The translations under genes were made by a program, and so were the position numbers. From Eledone cirrhosa (Eukaryota), in NCBI GenBank assembly GCA_964016885.1, contig OZ024741.1, positions 334,552,001 through 334,616,000 on the forward strand: DNA of 64,000 nt, read 5' to 3'. The notes under the pieces are model-generated. The model did no database searches. It was not told where the DNA came from and saw only the letters and a list, made by a program, of their open reading frames with translations. Below are positions 53,746-64,000 of the stretch, piece after piece (the stretch's first letter is position 1; every line of letters begins with the position of its first letter).

Positions 53746-53774
53746 GTATATAGATAGATAGATATATATACATA

Positions 53775-53900
53775 TTCACGCATGCGCACTACGGTCCAGC
53801 CTTCGCGCATGCGCACTATGGTCCACACTTCACGCATGCGCATTACAGTTCACACTTCGCATGCGCACTAAGGTTCATCCTTCGCGCATGCAGACTAACG
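53775..53900. repeat. 27-bp tandem repeat ttcgcgcatgcgcactacggtccagcc (also 49778-49808, 54324-54376, 63910-64000)
   Basis: Seen directly. Each unit carries the palindrome GCGCATGCGC. The downstream flank 53946-54100 is repeated at 54428-54596. Confidence 0.85.
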
Positions 53901-54277
53901 GCCCCGCCTACCTGTACATCTACCTGCTTATCTCCCCCTCTCCCCCAATATATACATATATATGTCTATTTATGAATAGATATATTTGTGTGTGCCTGTC
54001 CATTTCAAGAATTACAAAGAATTTGTGAGTTACTTCATACGGAGAGGATTAATAATAGCTTCACTAACTTTGGGGAACGATTTTTGTGTGGTGTGTGGTA
54101 TATATATATATATATATATATCCCAAGGCTTTGATACCATCAACACCATACACACACAGGTGGCATATCTAAGAACTGACTAACTGCCTGATTAGGTCAT
54201 AGCCATTCAATGGCTATCATCGAAATATATATAGCAGTAAATAAAGGATTATGAGTTCATGCAATTGACTTGTTTCG

Positions 54278-54326
<49 letters not shown>

Positions 54327-55409
54327 GCGCATGCGCACTACGGTCCAGCCTTCGCGCATGCGAACTACGGTCCAGCATAACTGTTAATTTACCTTCCGAT
54401 CTATCTACCTGTCTCTCTATCTGGTGCAATATATACATATATATGTCTATGTATGAATAGATGTATTTGTGTGTGTCTGTCCGTTAGATGTATAATTCCA
54501 TTTCAAGAATTATGAACAACTTGTAAGTTACTTTAGCCGAGGAGGATTAATAATAACTTCACTAACTGGGGGACGATTTGTGTGTGGTGTTTGGTATGGG
54601 TACGAGCTGGCCAGAGGTCCGCAACATCGCTGGTTATAGACCGCTAAGCATGGGCTTAATCTTTACTTTATATTCTACCCAGAAACTTTATCGTGACTAT
54701 CTATAATACACTTAAACTTTTTCATAAAAGCCTCCCTCTGTAAAATCTTTAACTAAATCTCACACCTTTAAACCTAAACCTTATTTTTCTAATTTCATCT
54801 TAAATGGCATCTTCTAACTCTAAACATAAATTTAACGTTTCTAATTGTTAATCGTAATTTCTGTCCATACATTATACCATGCAGACGCCTACTATATATT
54901 ACTAGATATAGCTTTGTTAAAGATATGTTCTTTGAAAATATATTTTTCGCGGCACCAGCTTGATTGTAACCTGATCTCAACGCTGGCCTCTGTCTTTGAC
55001 GAGGTGGTAGTAGTACACTATAAGCCTACGCCCCTTCACCAGATGGACATAAGTAGGCTTAATAATCACCACTTGAGGGCGGCCGACTGGGATAGAATCT
55101 GCTAAATGTTCGGTCGCCTTCATGTCTCTGATTTTCAGCCCCATGGATTTTGTCTATTATATTCATACTGAACCCGGTCATTGAAATGGTCATAGTATAA
55201 TAAACCTTTTAAGGAATTACACCAGTCCAGCCTCCTGTTATTTTATAATAATTAACTCCGTACTCGCATCGCCAACTACACAAATGAAGACGGGTGAGTT
55301 GCATAACGTTGAGTGCTCTCCATAATATTACATCGAGGTTGACCATACGGAATGACCAGTTCTATCCAGTGGTGAACCAACAAACCTAAATAAATATATA
55401 TATACATAT

Positions 55410-55775
55410 ATAACAAAATACTGGTGTGTATGAATATAACAAAAGACACAGTTGTGTGTATAAAGTTTAATTAACAAGTTGAAGTTATGTAGAATAGTAT
55501 AGTTGACATGTCCATGAGTAGATGAAAGATTGAAGTAAAGTTATTTGTTACCGTTTTGAAGTGAGCTCGCAAGAGACCATGTTAGGGTTGTCAGGCGAAC
55601 GCGCCTGGCCGAAGGGCCAGGCAGGTTAGAAGAAGGCAAATGAGAGAGAGAGATCGCTCTGACTATCCCTTTTATAGGGTCTCAGGACGGAAGTGACAAA
55701 AAGGGTTCTGCCACCTCAACGGGAAGTAACTCCAGCTACTTCCTTCTAGAGAGCGGTGATGTGATTGTCATAACA
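55410..55775 (-). mobile_element. Probable solo LTR; internally deleted relatives at 56828-56939 and 61943-62054
   Basis: Minus strand starts TGTTATGAC, has a TATAAAA box followed by agtcag and CT runs, then ATTAAA. Both ends are shared with the shorter copies. Confidence 0.5.
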
Positions 55776-56970
55776 AAGGAGGCAACTCTTGCAACATTAC
55801 CCCCAGCCAGATTTTTAAAATATAAAAATCGAATGAACCATGTATGGAGTAAGATGGCGAGCATGTAACACCGAAGTCCAGTCATGAAAATTACGAAAAA
55901 AATAATGTTTGCAATAAAAGGAAAACAGCAAAATATATGCATGCAAAAATCAATGATAGGTATCAAGGTAGCCAACGGCTCTTGGACAGAAAACGACTGG
56001 ACATCTATCTATCCATCACTCAAAGATACAATGTAATCAAAGTAAAAGAAGAGGTCAAAGTTCAAATGTTCAAGATACAGTTCACAGGTGTGCAATCACA
56101 TGACAGCAGGAACGAAAGTGTGTCCTAGAGAATGTATGCAGGTGGTTTCTGGTCTGTGGTACAACGTGAAAGTCCCAACCTCTGAAGGGATTTTCTCACA
56201 GGAAGAGTACTGCAAAAATAAATTCTGTCTTGTTCTGCTGGTTTTGGTTGTTGCTGTTATCTAAAGCAAAGATGAAGCTGTGTTGTTGTCTCGCGGAGTG
56301 AGCGTATTCGATGTTGTTTAAATTCACAGTAAAAATTTTCACAGAAAAAATGAGTTGCGCAAAGTGCTAGAAATAACAGCCAAAGTTGATGGTCGATGTT
56401 GAGAATGCGTTGACCTGGAAGGGTCAAGAGGCCAGCGACCAAAGAAATAAGCATTCTGAATAAATGCGCAGTTTTCAACGGCAAATTTACGTGGTAAATG
56501 TTTAAACCGGCAAATAGGAGAATATAGCTTAAGGCTGGAGAATCCTTGTCAAGAAACATTATCTATGGCGTGTGTTATCTCAGTGAGTCGAGATGTGTGC
56601 TCCCCACACGTGCCGAAATAAGGTTAAAGTCAAGTTGAAAAAAAAATATTTCTATTGCGCGAGAAAATGGCGCGAAAATGATAGTGCAACAGGTCGTTGG
56701 CAGCCATTTTGAAAGATTTTGGTCGACACCTTCCAACGAAAATGGGGTACTGCTAATTAATTTTTTTATATATATTCACACAACACCAATTCCTATTATT
56801 TTTTCATTTTTTCGGGGTCACCACTTATAACCGAATACTGGTGTGTATGAATATAGCAAGACACTAGGTTGTGCCGGTCCAACGGGAAGTAACTCCAGCT
56901 ACTTCCTGTCTAGAGAGCGGTGATGTGATTGTCATAACAAGGGGGGAAACACTTACTACACATATATACA

Positions 56971-57022
<52 letters not shown>

Positions 57023-57044
57023 CATATACATATACATATATATA

Positions 57045-57520
57045 GCTTGAGATCGGTGTGGAAGTCTGACTTTTGTAAAGAGCTGAAAATCCGCCTCTTC
57101 ATTGTTGTAGTGGAGTCTGTGTTGCTGTACGGGTCTGAGACTTGGACACTGACAAAGAAACTCACTCAGATGGTAGATGGGTGCTATACGAGAATGCTGA
57201 GGATGGCTCTGAACATTAATCAGTATACACTGACGATGAAAAGCTCAGCTGTATGGGAGCCTCCCAAAAGTCAGCTCAAAAGTGACACAGAAAAGACTGA
57301 TTGTTAGCTGGACATGCTCACCGACATCCAGATTTGACACTGCATTCAGTGCTCCTGTAGGAGCCCCTGCATGGACACACTGGAAGAGGAAGACCAAGGT
57401 TAACATATGTTGATGCCTAAGGACAGAAACTGGTCTCTTTGAGACGCAGGACATGGCGGCGATGATGAGGGACAGAGACCGCTGGAGAGAACTCGTCCAT
57501 GGATCTCGGTAATTTTACCC
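57045..57520 (+). mobile_element. RTE-type LINE 3' fragment (mirror copy at 61365-61842, minus strand)
   Basis: LKIRLF..VESVLLYGSETWTLT..DGCYTRMLRMALN. Confidence 0.8.
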
Positions 57521-57566
57521 GCCCTAGATATATATATATATATATATATATAGTACTATATGTATA

Positions 57567-58155
57567 TCATCATCATCACCGTTTTACGTCTGTTCTTCCA
57601 CACTAGCATGGGTTAGACGGGTTGTCCTGTTGTGGGCAGTGTCCGGTCGGCTGACCATGCCTTGCTCAAACGGGAACTGATTCTGGCTTGATTTCTACAG
57701 CTGGATGCCCATCATAACACCAACCTCATTTACAGTAAGTGCTAGGTGCTTTTTTCCCGTGGCGCCTACACGTCCACTTTACAGTGTGGGCTGGGTGCTT
57801 TTTTTGCCGTGGCACCTCCACGACCACTTTGCAGTGGGAGGGTGTGAGGGCATATTGTCTATATGCTTCAGCTTCGGCTTGTACCCGTGGGGGGTCGGGT
57901 CTTCAGTATTACTGCGTGACGCCAGAGGTCACGGTCGTGTGTCATCGCCTTTAAGAGGTGTAATTGGGTAAGGTCGGCTTTTATCACCTCATTCCAGGTC
58001 TTCTTGGGTCTTCCCACTCCGCGGTTGCCACCGACTTCTAGTGCTCTGCACCTTTTTATGCAGCTGTCATCCTTCATACGCATCACATGTCCATACCAAC
58101 GCAGTCGCCTCTCCTGCACACAGCATTTGATTCCTCTTATGCTCAGTGTCTTCTC
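57567..58155 (-). mobile_element. RTE 3' fragment with 3' UTR and (TGA)n tail (mirror copy at 60723-61320, plus strand)
   Basis: QERRLRWYGHVMRM and GRPKKTW. The UTR is shared with 10193-10620 and the SINE tail. Confidence 0.85.
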
Positions 58156-58599
58156 AATTCATTTTTGCTTTGCCGTTATATATATATAAACGTTTGTATA
58201 TGTATAATAAAACCAAAGCAATGCAGGTATGGGTATAGAATAAAGAATGCAAATGTAAAAGATATTGTTGACAATTAGTCTTTTACCTTAGATTTATTTA
58301 AATGTCCTTAATTTTCGAGATAATATCTCTTCTTCGGAGGGAAGTAAAGTGGTTAAACCAGTGTTCTAAATAGCTTGCCAAGTCATGCTGACAGGAAATG
58401 GTATAGAGTATCTGTTCTATCTCTAATATCAAAGAGTTAAGGTTAGGTGGATAAAGAGTAGTCTCCCTTTAAAAGGATTTTTTTTTTTGTACATGCCTGT
58501 TTAAGTGCGTGGGAGAATGCGTGAAGGTGTAAGTATGTGTATGTGTGTGAGAAGATATGTCTACACGTCAATGGAAAAAGATATGTCTACACGTCAATG

Positions 58600-60321
58600 A
58601 ACTATATACAGAGATCCCGGACATGACTGCAGCTCAGATCGAAAAACAAACCAACTCCATCTGGTTCGACATCTGTAGGAGAAGACAACTCACAAATAAA
58701 GTTAAGCTCAACTACACCACTAAAATAGCAGACTGCCCACTTTCAACCACCTCATCAAAACCCACAAGAATAGTACTAAGACACAAATAAGACCCATCGT
58801 CTCTAGCATAGAAGGACCCCTATACAAAATTTCCTGGCTCCTCTCCCAGGTCCTCAAGCCTCTACTCTCCACCTTTCCCGGGCGCATGTCAGTAGCTCCG
58901 ACGAAGTCATACGTAGACTACACCAACTCCAGCCAGAACAACTTAAAGTAAATAGATACGCCTTTAGCCTCGACGTTATCTCCCTCTACACTACAATCTC
59001 CGTTCATCTAGCTGTCGATTTATTGACGGACTGCGTGGTCGCAGAGGACATCCACTGCTACGGCCTCCATCCGACGGACATACACCAGCTTTTGTCCTTC
59101 ACAGTGGACAACACGTACTTCACCTTCCACCACCACACATACAGACAGACAACAGGATTACCCATGGGATCCAGCCTATCGGGCCTGTTGGCCATCACCT
59201 ATATGAACCAGCTAGAATGCCGAGCCCTCAACCATGCCATTCCCATACCTTCTTCACCCGATATGTAGATGTCATACTCATCCTTACATCATCCCGTGAG
59301 GAGGCAGATAAAATATACACAACATTCTCCAGCATGGACGCCAGTAAAAAGTTCAGCATGGAACACCCCGATGACCGCGGATCCCTAGCCCTACTGGACT
59401 TCCAACTCAGAGTAACAGAGGAAGGCAATATCCACACCTGCTTCTATAAAAAAGCCACCAGCAGAGACCTGTTCGTACATTTCAGATCGGCCCTCCCAGC
59501 CGGCGCTAAGTTCGGATACATAAGGAACGAACTAACACGTATCCGGAACAAATGCACCGACGCTAGAGAGCGAGACACACACACACCACACATTTCCTGG
59601 AAGTACTCAAACTGAACGGATACACGACATCCACCACAAACCGTGCCAGAAAGAACAGACGACACCACACCCGAGGCACTAACACTTGCCTCCTGAAGCT
59701 CCCGCACTTCAGTGACGAAACAACAACAGCCATCCGCAGAGCTATCAGACGAGAGGGACTAGATAGCCAACTAGCCCACTCAAGTCCTTCTCTACGCGGA
59801 CAGCTAACCAAAAGACACTCCACCAGACATGACAACTGCTGCAGGTTAGCCAACTGCCCCATCAACGACACAGACCTATGCCACCAGGCTTACGTCGTAT
59901 ACAGACTAGAGTGCGACAAATGCAGCAATTGCTACGTATGTAGCACCACCAGACCACTCCACATAAGAATAAAAGAACATCTCAATACTAACGCTTCCTC
60001 ATTTAAGAAAGACCTAGTTAAATGCAAAAACACCGACAAAACCATAACAGTTAGGATAGAAACTAAGGAAAGAAACCTCGGCAATCTTAGAATTAAGGAA
60101 GCACTAATTATAGACAAAACACAACCACCAATCAATAATAGACTAGAACTCAACACCCAATTTATAACTTGATAGAGCATCTAGCCCCATATTTACACCC
60201 TCCCCTCCCACACGCACGCAAGCACACGCTTACACCTCCACTTATTCTCTCTCACACACACAAAGACCAGTTCTAACACGAGATAACATCTATCCCCCAC
60301 ATTTACGTGTAGACGTATCTT

Positions 60322-60356
<35 letters not shown>

Positions 60357-60622
60357 TTACACCTTCACGCATTCTCCCACACACTTAAACAGGCATGTAC
60401 AAAAAAAACCTTTTAAAGGGAGACTACTCTTTATACACCTAACCTTAACTCTTTAATATTAGAGATAGAACAGATACTCTATACCATTTCCTGTCAGCAT
60501 GACATGGCAAGCTATTTAGAACACTGGTTTAACCGCTTTACTTCCCTCCGAAGAAGAGATATTATCTCGAAAATTAAGGACATTGAAATAAATCTAAGGT
60601 AAAAGACTAATTGTCAACAATA
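58600..60622 (+). mobile_element. Penelope-like element, disrupted RT + GIY-YIG with 3' pLTR; further pLTRs at 58262-58572 (-) and 62652-63024 (+)
   Basis: FSLDVISLYT, YRQTTGLPMGSSLS, TRYVDVIL, LALLDF, VVYRLECDKC..YV and EALII. Confidence 0.88.
60543..60580 (+). ncRNA. Minimal hammerhead-like motif with U4C core variant (copies at 58305-58342 minus and 62948-62985 plus)
   Basis: cct CCGAAGA a gagat att atctc GAAA at TA agg; stem III is the palindrome aatt. Confidence 0.5.
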
Positions 60623-61840
60623 TCTTTTGCATTTGCATTCTTTATTCTATGCCCATACCTGCATTGTTTTGGCTTTATTATACATATACAAACGTCTATA
60701 TATATATATATATATATATATAGCGGCAAAGCATAAATGAATTGAGAGAGACACTGAGCATAAGAGGAATCAAATGCTGTGTGCAGGAGAGGCGACTGCG
60801 TTGGTATGGACATGTGATGCCTATGAAAGATGACAGCTGCATAAAAAGGTGCAGAGCACTAGAAGTCGGTGGCAACCGCGGAGTGGGAAGACCCAAGAAG
60901 ACCTGGAATGAGGTGATAAAAGCCGACCTTACCCAATTACACCTCTTAAAGGCGATGACGCACGACCCTGACCTCTGGCGTCACGCAGTAATACAGAAGA
61001 CCCGACCCCCCACGGGTACAAGCCGAAGCTGAAGCATATAGACAATATGCCCTCACACCTCCCACTGCAAAGTGGCCATGGAGGTGCCACGGCAAAAAGG
61101 TACCCAGCCCACACTGTAAAGTGAACGTGTAGGCGCCACGGGAAAAAGCACCTAGCACTCACTGTAAATTAGGAAGGGCATCCAGCTGTAGAAATCAAGC
61201 CAGAATCAGTTCCCGTTTGAGCAAGGCATTGTCAGCCGACCGGACACTGCCCACAACAGGACAACCCGTCTAACCCATGCTAGTGTGGAAGAACAGACGT
61301 AAAACGGTGATGATGATGATATACATATAGTACTATATATCTATATATATATATATATCTAGGGCGGGTAAAATACCGAGATTCATGGACGAGTTCTCTC
61401 CAGCGGTCTCTGTCCCTCATCATCGCCGCCATGTCCTGCGTCTCAAAGAGACCAGTTTCTGTCCATAGGGCATCAACATATGTTAACCTTGGTCTTCCTC
61501 TTCCAGTGTGTCCATGCAGGGGCTCCTACAGGAGCACTGAATGCAGTGTCACATCTGGATGTCGGTGAGCATGTCCAGCTAACAATCAGTCTTCTCTGTG
61601 TCACTTTTGAGCTGACTTTTGGGAGGCTCCCATATAGCTGAGTTTTTCTTCCTCAGTGTATACTGATTAATGTTCAGAGCCATCCTCAGCATTCTCGTAT
61701 AGCACCCATCTACCATCTGAGTGAGTTTCTTGGTCAGTGTCCAAGTCTCAGACCCGTACAGCAGCAGAGACTCCACTACAACAATGAAGAGGCGGACCTT
61801 CAGGTCTTTACAAAGGTCAGACTTCCACACCGATCTCAAG

Positions 61841-61886
<46 letters not shown>

Positions 61887-63020
61887 ATATGTATATATAT
61901 ATATATAGTTATGTATATATGTGTAGCAAGAGTTGCCTCCCTTGTTATGACAATCACATCACCGCTCTCTATACAGGAAGTAGCTGGAGTTACTTCTCGT
62001 TGGACCGGCACAACCTAGTGTCTTGCTATATTCATACACACCAGTATACGGTTATAAGTGGTGACCCCGAAAAAAGAAAAGAATAATAGGAATTGGTGTT
62101 GTGTGAATATATATAAAAAAATTAATTAGCAGTACCCCATTTTCGTTGGAAGGTGTCGACCAAAATCTTTCAAAATGGCTGCCAACGACCTGTTGCACTA
62201 ACATTTTCGCGCCATTTTCTCGCGCAATAGAATTTTTTTTTTTCAACCCGACTTTAACCTTGTTTCGGCACGTGTGGGGAGCACACATCTCGACTCACTG
62301 AGATAACACACGCCATAGATAATGTTTCTTGACAAGGATTCTCCAGCCTTAAACTATATTCTCCTATTTGCCGGTTTAAAAATTTACCACGTAAATTTGC
62401 CGTTGAAAACTGCGCATTTATTCAGAATGCTTATTTCTATGGTCGCTGGCCTTTTGACCCTCCCAGGTCAACGCATTCTCAACATCGACCATCAACTTTG
62501 GCTGTTATTTCTAGCACTTTGCGCAACTCCTTTTTTCTGGGAAATTTTTACTGTGAATTTAAACAACATCGAATACGCTCACTCCGCGAGACAACAACAC
62601 AGCTTCATCTTTACTTTAGACAACAGCAACAACCAAAACCAGCAGAACAAGACCCAATTTATAACTTGATAGAGCATCCAGCCCCATATTTACATCCCCC
62701 TTCCCACACATGCACACATGCTTACATCTCCACTTATTCTCTCTCACACACACACACATACTTACACCTTTACGCATTCTCCCACACACTTAAACAGGCA
62801 TGTACAAAAAAACCCTTTTAAAGGGAGACTACTCTTTATCCACCTAACCTTAACTCTTTGATATTAGAGATAGAACAGATACTCTATACCATTTCCTGTC
62901 AGCATGTCTTGGCAAGCTATTTAGAACACTGGTTTAACCGCTTTACTTCCCCCCGAAGAAGAGATATTATCTCGAAAATTAAGGACATTTAAATAAATCT
63001 AAGGTAAAAGATCTGTCAAC

Positions 63021-63905
63021 AATATATTTCTTTAATGGAATATATACAGTGAAGATTAATTATATTATAAGGTATCCATTTTTGAAGTTCTGGTCAACTT
63101 TATTTAGTTACCTACCTAGCTATGTGTGGTTACACACTTGTAAAAATTATCTCCTGTGATTATTCATGTTTATATATATGTTAATCAATTTCTAGTTATT
63201 ATAAAATGCTCCGACCTACTCGTTAGAACCTTAGAGATTATTTTCCGGGTGATCTGGCGCATGTCTTTCTGGCATGACACCCATCATTTTGATTTAGATT
63301 AAATTCATTTAATTTATCTTAATTTTGGATATAGATATATAAATACGGCTCCTTAATTGTAGAGCTAACCCTGTTGAAAGGACTGGACTGCTGTTTCTAG
63401 TTGTCGATAACCCTATTCACGCCACTGGGACGAAGCTACTATGATGTGTGTATTTCTAGTAAATACTACACGTGGTGATAGTCAGTCGCAGATTTGAACT
63501 TGAAGTGTAAGCTCGGATAGCTGGAAATTTCTTCCTTGTTGAAAATCCAAATCCCCACTTCCGTGGTTTACCATCCGATTAATTGGTGAAATATATTTCT
63601 TTAATGGAATATATACAGGGAAGATTAATCATATTATAAGGTATCAATTTTGAAGTTCTGGTCAACTTTATTTAGTTACCTACCTAGCTATGTGTGGTTA
63701 CACACTTGTAAAAATTATCTCCTGTGATTATTCATGTTTATATATATGTTAATCAATTTCTAGTTATTATAAAATGCTTGGACCTACTCGTTAGAATCTT
63801 AGACCTTATTTTCCGGGTGATATGGCGCATGTATTTCTGGCATGACGCCCATAATTTTGATTTAGATTAAATTCATTTAATTTATCTTAATTTTGGATAT
63901 ATATA
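63021..63905. repeat. Partial tandem duplication, period about 569 bp (63021-63335 matches 63590-63903)
   Basis: atatatttctttaatggaatatatacag..ttaattttggatata occurs twice. Confidence 0.88.
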
Positions 63906-64000
63906 TGTATTCGCGCATGTGCACTACGGTCCGGCCTTCGCACATGCGCACTACGGTACAGCCTTCGCGCATGCGCACTATGGTCCAGCCTTCGCGCATG

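Follow-up and report, generated by a model that had tools for sequence, protein, structure and literature searches.

We analysed a Penelope-like element (PLE) and its surroundings in a stretch of 64,000 nucleotides of Eledone cirrhosa (contig OZ024741.1, positions 334,552,001 to 334,616,000 of the forward strand). The whole stretch is called the window, and positions are counted from its first letter. A masked self-alignment of the window detects a central element with three copies of its own pseudo-long terminal repeat (pLTR), enclosed by inverted arms that align in two blocks, 56261-56950 against 62619-61932 (96.7% identity) and 57052-58522 against 61834-60367 (92.4% identity with gaps). The arms of the inverted duplication are 56227-58573 and about 60305-62653. 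In a direct alignment of the arms, homology stops at GAACAAGAC, precisely where the second direct pLTR (pLTR2) begins. The preliminary description of this DNA had proposed both a PLE-centred inverted duplication and the coincidence of the pLTR2 start with the end of arm homology, and the alignments bear out both. The order along the locus is F, pINV, core, pLTR1, F', pLTR2, with (TA)n flanking the insertion on both sides. The features are:

55420-56950, minus strand: multi-copy non-coding element of the long terminal repeat (LTR) type, intact across the breakpoint at 56227, as judged from family copies, its LTR pair and the sequence
56227-58176: F, the original left flank that was duplicated, comprising part of the LTR-type element, a (TA)n tract and two 3' fragments of non-LTR retrotransposons
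58177-58187: (TA)n target, left side, from the sequence
58188-58573, minus strand: pINV, an inverted partial pLTR with its natural tailless 3' end on (TA)n
58552-58599, plus strand: 22-bp tandem duplication with GAAA spacer, spanning the pINV/core inversion junction, a joint with AATG/CAATG microhomology
58595-60172, plus strand: PLE open reading frame (ORF), 5'-truncated and frameshifted, with reverse transcriptase (RT) and C-terminal GIY-YIG; about 1 kb of the ORF is missing at the 5' end
60157-60697, plus strand: pLTR1, whose 3' end lacks a tail and shares its flank with pINV
60698-60722: (TA)n tract, mirror of 58177-58187
60723-62653, minus strand: F', the inverted copy of the left flank (1.93 kb), ending abruptly within the LTR-type element
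62654-63025, plus strand: pLTR2, starting in the last ORF codons, with an internal deletion of about 90 bp and the last 70 bp or so gone
63021-63909, plus strand: unrelated tandem repeat family G, with a 569-bp unit, 5'-truncated, 3' end on (TA)n, AATAT joint with pLTR2
60545-60579, plus strand: minimal hammerhead-like motif of pLTR1, from a motif scan and family conservation
62950-62984: the same motif in pLTR2, with stem I broken
58306-58340, minus strand: the same motif in pINV

The core is a 5'-truncated, frameshifted canonical PLE with RT and C-terminal GIY-YIG. In the window ORF, the Pfam matches to RVT_1 (E = 1.4e-5) and GIY-YIG (E = 0.0014) both fall short of the Pfam cut-off; in a family copy (L034) the two domains lie in one frame and both pass it (E = 2.9e-14 and 4.1e-6). 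The window ORF also contains a CCHH motif whose two cysteines lie between GIY and YIG (VVYRLECDKCSNCYV...HIRIKEH), a feature of canonical endonuclease-positive (EN+) PLEs (PMC8557442; this and all other papers are cited for the accessible part of their text). A search of the PDB returned no relative. Fuller family copies carry about 1 kb of additional ORF and a direct 5' partial pLTR, and direct 5' pLTRs and inverted arms were mapped in multiple copies. The copies end in ...CAAACGTT followed by (TA)n, or have an additional tail of about 42 nt ahead of the (TA)n. There were 1,687 exact matches to the 26-nt end motif, so that the family has at least 1,687 ends.

A hammerhead-like motif (core-stem II-GAAA) is found in all three window pLTRs, and the strict pattern occurs in 194 of 307 family ends, which makes it a fixed part of the pLTR. 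Rfam, searched at E values up to 5, left the motif uncalled and gave low-complexity matches only, and the predicted fold is no better than that of shuffled sequences (z about 0). The significance that had been attached to ribozyme motifs at both ends of the duplicated DNA is lost, since every pLTR carries one. Inverted pLTRs are likewise typical of the family, and both are ordinary marks of it. At the inversion junction, the 22-bp tandem duplication noted before is present: the 22-mer occurs at 58552-58573 and at 58578-58599, with GAAA between the copies. It consists of 17 nt of pLTR and CAATG of the core and thus spans the junction, which means that it was duplicated at or after formation of the joint.

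The non-PLE cargo covers 56227-58176 on the left (1.95 kb) and 60723-62653 on the right (1.93 kb). The claim that it is bounded by pLTRs holds for the pLTR2 start, but the natural 3' ends of the PLE, at 60697 and 58188, lie about 70 bp further out than the end of pLTR2, and the cargo limits shift accordingly. The cargo is entirely transposon debris and repeat DNA from the insertion's own flank, with no host gene. It contains two non-LTR retrotransposon 3' fragments, which we take to be RTE-like and for which Pfam gave no match, and part of the LTR-type element, presumably TRIM-like (55420-56950). The latter is composed of an internally deleted 5' LTR (about 56835-56950), a site resembling a primer-binding site (56813-56823), an internal region, a polypurine tract (about 55799-55815) and a 3' LTR (about 55420-55796); self-alignment pairs 55704-55786 with 56867-56950 as its LTRs. 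The "LTR derivative" and "600-bp unknown" that the preliminary description listed separately are one LTR-type element.

Contrary to the preliminary description, the left arm does not run on into ordinary flank; the breakpoint lies inside this multi-copy element. Family copies of the element continue unbroken across 55950-56717 among the 40 of 1,358 candidates that were scored. As the element is intact through the breakpoint in the left arm and cut off in the right arm, the right arm is the copy, in agreement with the preliminary description. Of 467 sites compared with 18 family copies, 16 carry derived changes common to both arms, 4 are changed in the left arm only and 8 in the right arm only, and the shared changes indicate a single local source for the arms and not two insertions. 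By this comparison, the donor of the cargo is the insertion's adjacent flank, inverted. At the outer junction, flank and PLE share AC and then, past two mismatches, AATTTAT. pLTR2 starts at a plain truncation, and its start was not seen as a recurrent family boundary in 68 mapped loci. The preliminary description had suggested a search for the same pLTR-cargo-pLTR unit elsewhere; no second locus crossing the junction between cargo and pLTR2 was found among the best 40 of 2,434 candidates.

The inverted duplication is real in the assembly. Of 1,736 unmasked sites, 52 distinguish its arms (29 transitions, 23 transversions), as do 11 gap events, and the core has private changes at 29 of 1,417 sites (17 transitions to 12 transversions). 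Per lineage, divergence is 1.5% in the arms (95% confidence interval 1.1-2.0) versus 2.0% in the core (1.4-2.9), which is not a significant difference (Fisher p = 0.18). Pairwise comparison of the three pLTRs gives 5, 7 and 4 differences at 199 shared sites, and no pair stands apart. This comparison of arm and pLTR divergence, which had been recommended as a check, reveals no measurable lag; judged by these substitutions, the duplication seems to be about as old as the insertion.

The PLE family was surveyed at 191 other loci (L031-L069, L137-L288) in addition to the window. These loci comprise 39 listed for the core search, 72 from the first 100 listed end matches (75 loci, 3 of them already in the set) and a last set of 80, out of 92 new places that 98 exact tailless ends provided. 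This last set was selected by a tailless end and thus tests only the partner end. There are 107 outward-facing inverted pairs in 101 of the 192 sequences, window included. Exactly one end is tailed (about 42 nt) in 93 of the 95 other outward pairs, regardless of which arm is longer; by set, this applies to 52 of 53 non-window pairs in sets one and two taken together, and to 41 of 42 in the last set. The two exceptions are L040, which represents two separate insertions 5.6 kb apart, and L267, which has a part-tail. Unpaired ends (first 111 loci and window) are tailless in 41 cases and tailed in 18. In the pINV/pLTR1 pair of the window, both ends are tailless, and it is the only one of the 107 outward pairs whose two outer flanks match from the ends. 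Due to these two properties, the pLTR1 end is best read as an in-register copy of the pINV end; the simplest reading of the sequence would then make pLTR2 the insertion's true other end.

On balance, we favour the view that the flank copy was made on DNA, by a cut left end that folded back during or just after insertion, and that it was then joined to a second cDNA. From the observed structure we infer the following steps. The endonuclease would cut both strands of the (TA)n, and reverse transcription from the tailless start site would extend the left end to 58595. The cDNA 3' end would anneal onto its own pLTR part via AATG and close a hairpin, with slippage at the hairpin joint giving rise to the 22-bp repeat. 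Opening of the hairpin 1.95 kb upstream, either by a nick and strand displacement or by replication and breakage, would yield F-pINV-core-pLTR1-F', and the new end could then join, by microhomeology, a short cDNA (pLTR2) primed at the right target end. Family G would later land in the right (TA)n and trim pLTR2. In a variant covered by the same estimate, two replicated sister ends tethered by the cDNA would give the same product. A fold-back of this kind would explain the exact order of the parts, the missing tail and the equal ages; both arms of the fold leave one (TA)n and one tailless end, and cDNA occupies the fold. Cutting and extension of both strands, with two start sites on the RNA, has been shown for a purified PLE protein, and the two RT start sites define the PLE tail (PMC11167929). 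L1 produces hairpin and sister-end foldbacks that contain cDNA (PMC11702581).

Fold-backs that abut family ends via (TA)n alone were found at 4 of the 191 other copies, and one of them is clean. Their sizes are 543 bp (L068), 429 bp (L208), 142 bp (L067) and 133 bp (L152). At L068 (raw 7073-8183; G000:C14 about 29805470-29806580), 540 bp of single-copy DNA is duplicated in inverted orientation around a central (TA)n; a further (TA)n and the tailed end of a PLE come next. The arms differ at 12 of 536 sites (2.2%) versus 0.94% private change in the PLE of this locus, and by these counts arm divergence matches the age of the element. At L152 (5973-6320), the arm is 100% identical over 140 bp compared to 96% for the best other copies, so the fold-back is likely local. 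At L208 (2272-3298), the sister arm is the top match, narrowly (646 versus 631 bits), which is suggestive of a local fold-back. Both L208 and L152 were judged from match tables. At L067 (raw about 5700-6036), the flank belongs to a young repeat family whose copies are 97-100% identical, which makes the status of this apparent fold-back ambiguous. Fifteen further candidates (L034, L059, L063, L069, L172, L196, L216, L220, L229, L230, L244, L245, L258, L278 and L284) turned out on inspection to be either palindromic families or other elements in inverted pairs and were dropped, and L044, L231 and L283 were left out of the count. L044 (about 3410-4260 raw) has a 340-bp inverted repeat (96%) with a 150-bp spacer directly past the PLE (TA)n, which could be a miniature inverted-repeat transposable element or a fold-back.

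It is possible, though we consider it rather doubtful, that the locus reflects a general process, in which PLE insertion into self-complementary (TA)n regularly gives hairpin-capped ends, about 2% of insertions copy 0.1-2 kb of their flank as a mirror image, the strict rule of one tail per pair reflects priming by the two halves of a PLE dimer at RNA start sites that always differ, and violations of the tail rule mark DNA-copied ends genome-wide. If this were true, PLEs would regularly give rise to local inverted duplications in genomes rich in (TA)n. In a family of at least 1,687 ends, fold-backs after about 2% of insertions would mean a steady supply of palindromes and small duplications in this genome. 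The near-absolute one-tail rule provides a link to the two RT start sites seen in vitro (PMC11167929).

Several points weigh against the fold-back reading. A later template switch fits the geometry equally well. Dating is weak, as 199 sites are compatible with a moderate lag, and the end of pLTR2, where a tail is predicted, is lost. Inverted repeats centred on (TA)n occur anyway, at 14 of 1,223 and 4 of 606 tracts (18 of 1,829 together), and many of these palindromes are other elements. All four fold-backs at family ends come from the first 111 loci surveyed, the 80 that follow contain none, and repeat DNA is involved in three of them (L067, L208 and L152). In public reads (four runs for the whole region, four for 62560-63100), cover was at family level and no listed piece bridged a junction. 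The best of the 10 public runs listed shares 0.38 of words. The lack of a bridging piece is uninformative and not contrary. It is also the one observation that would suit an assembly artefact, i.e. a chimeric fold-back read or two joined haplotypes, which we consider barely credible. The 52 arm substitutions have a spectrum like that of the core (29:23 and 17:12, respectively), which speaks against an artefact of reads or haplotypes; private changes are present in both arms, every junction shows a microhomology of its own, and joined haplotypes would not lie in inverted orientation about a coherent retroelement. Misassembly is thus unlikely.

Template switching would have acted later, on an earlier normal copy with the structure F-pINV-core-pLTR(tail), as in a miniature DUP-TRP/INV-DUP rearrangement (an inverted triplication between duplications). 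From the pLTR start, a stalled fork would jump to F, 1.95 kb upstream, with the aid of microhomeology; it would copy F and pINV and return via pINV/pLTR homology. This would account for the two tailless ends as well as the geometry, with one junction hidden within the inverted repeats and the other microhomeologous, and inverted repeats are switch substrates in humans (PMC11293582). The higher divergence of the core allows a lag, and two changes common to pLTR1 and pINV, at 60309 and 60652, occur in 0 of 33 and 4 of 121 copies, respectively. However, these two changes sit where pLTR2 is missing and may be changes of the source element, and no lag is measurable among the three pLTRs. The repeats are only about 390 bp long versus identity tracts of 2.2-5.5 kb in the human cases (PMC11293582), and fold-backs of the L068 type, without a pLTR pair, are left unexplained. 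We regard a later template switch as unlikely. RNA transduction appears improbable. Here, a minus-strand copy at F would be read through 1.95 kb of flank, RT begun on pLTR RNA would jump onto the transcript, and the product would reinsert into the source. A tailless pLTR1 is predicted by this route as well, the PLE protein is able to nick its own pLTR DNA (PMC11167929), and cargo between direct pLTRs resembles the Pen1 spacers and the pLTR-framed non-ribosomal peptide synthetase (NRPS) gene of Adineta (PMC3846280). Yet it requires reinsertion into the source and loss of at least 1.6 kb of it, no leftover element piece was found in the window plus 8 kb, the search among the best 40 candidates yielded no second copy of the unit, and the cargo ends in a DNA-type microhomeology joint with no poly(A). 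The PLE-driven transduction or duplication of host DNA envisaged in the preliminary description therefore persists as a PLE-tied duplication, RNA-sense transduction is not favoured, and the donor is the insertion's own inverted flank, with transposon pieces only. A succession of two events, i.e. a short copy (pLTR2) with a (TA)n-centred fold-back of F, followed by a twin-primed copy into the central (TA)n, is highly improbable in our view. The arrangement F-(TA)n-F'-PLE 5' end does occur at L152 and L067, and (TA)n tracts are shared hot spots. However, the central pair should then carry one tail, as 93 of 95 others do, and carries none, and the 5' part of pLTR2 is nearest to pLTR1 (89%) versus at most 86% for the other copies scored over that part.

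Compared with known systems, the locus shares RT with C-terminal GIY-YIG, partial-tandem pLTRs, the head-to-head inverted arm and (TA)n targets with canonical EN+ PLEs, its family shares the one-end tail, and the hammerhead-like motif of its pLTRs may be a further common feature (PMC3846280; PMC8557442; PMC11167929). Unlike in these elements, as far as the accessible text describes them, both inverted ends of the window lack a tail and have one flank in common, and beyond them come the inverted flank copy of 1.93 kb and a third pLTR. The canonical one-end tail of 30-40 nt is present in the family (93 of the 95 other pairs) and absent from the pINV/pLTR1 pair, which lowers the case for a plain twin-primed copy, not the identity as a PLE. 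Inverted pLTRs, an optional tail, host DNA between pLTRs and self-priming have been described for PLEs (PMC3846280); often just one of the ends carries the tail, and the life cycle is undefined (PMC8557442). The structure is PLE-linked and a variation on known PLE behaviour. Its value is mechanistic, because the formation of tandem and inverted PLE structures is still undefined (PMC8557442).

In Adineta vaga, the Pen1 spacers (0.9-1.5 kb) and the NRPS gene at Pen3a are non-element DNA between direct pLTRs with a far inverted pLTR, as here (PMC3846280). By the same measures, the window has cargo between two direct pLTRs and lacks a distant donor: the Adineta NRPS gene came from elsewhere, with a target-site duplication and an empty allele, whereas the window donor is the adjacent flank, inverted, without a gene. 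A partial precedent in the same paper is 304 bp of an internal insert repeated in inverted orientation upstream of the 5' pLTR (PMC3846280). L1 foldbacks, inverted duplications and locally templated insertions are reported from cultured human cells, where, as here, a cut end self-anneals or replicates, cDNA lies at the fold and local DNA is copied (PMC11702581). The enzyme class is different, the window holds a fixed germline event, and it was resolved locally, after 1.95 kb, by a second cDNA and not by chromosome-scale instability as in the accessible account of L1 (PMC11702581). DUP-TRP/INV-DUP rearrangements have in common with the window a repeat present three times, once in inverted orientation, duplication of the neighbouring DNA, and one homology plus one microhomology junction; unlike those described in the accessible text, the window structure is of kilobase scale, its repeats of about 390 bp are element-made, and no lag is measurable (PMC11293582). 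In the literature searched, from which older subscription papers on Penelope fell outside, we found no paper describing an inverted duplication of target flank at a PLE insertion, and neither a literature search on octopus repeats nor the accessible portions of PMC13282606 and 10.64898/2026.07.22.740005 yielded anything on a flank-copy structure. Inverted copying of an element's own flank was otherwise found only for L1 in cell culture, and the novelty is provisional.

At the right end, pLTR2 stops about 70 bp early and joins family G via AATAT microhomology; the missing 70 bp or so were not found in the next 8 kb. Family G is likely a later insertion into the right (TA)n that trimmed pLTR2, as we infer from this joint, and on that premise the original event would be a pure insertion into (TA)n. 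An internal start site as the reason for the short 3' end of pLTR2 was set aside, because the joining of family G explains the end and the sequence is absent from those 8 kb. Descent of pLTR2 from another subfamily was rejected, as the same copies are nearest to all three pLTRs. The 5' part of pLTR2 (62654-62760) has clustered C-to-T differences relative to the family, and its deletion of about 90 bp lies between two (CA)n tracts. Family G (63021-63909; L092-L106) is non-coding and has 3,252 candidates; it shows truncation at the 5' end and 5' pieces in inverted orientation, and its 3' end is fixed and lies on (TA)n. In behaviour it resembles a PLE-mobilised element, and the scan found no hammerhead core in it.

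Other families with canonical CTGATGA hammerhead-type cores, often in inverted pairs, use the same (TA)n hot spots (L034:2740-2977, L069:3111-3180, L172:6279-6348 and L230:1632-1905). Long (TA)n is seen at 5' junctions of the PLE family too (for example at L067, L069 and L059), besides the 3' ends, and (TA)n also terminates fold-back arms where the donor has none; these sequences suggest that (TA)n is added or expanded during insertion. Finally, at three places (TA)n is followed by a short repeat family that has a tandem unit inside it (53761-54567 and 63896-64000), and the same family forms the true right flank of the insertion.

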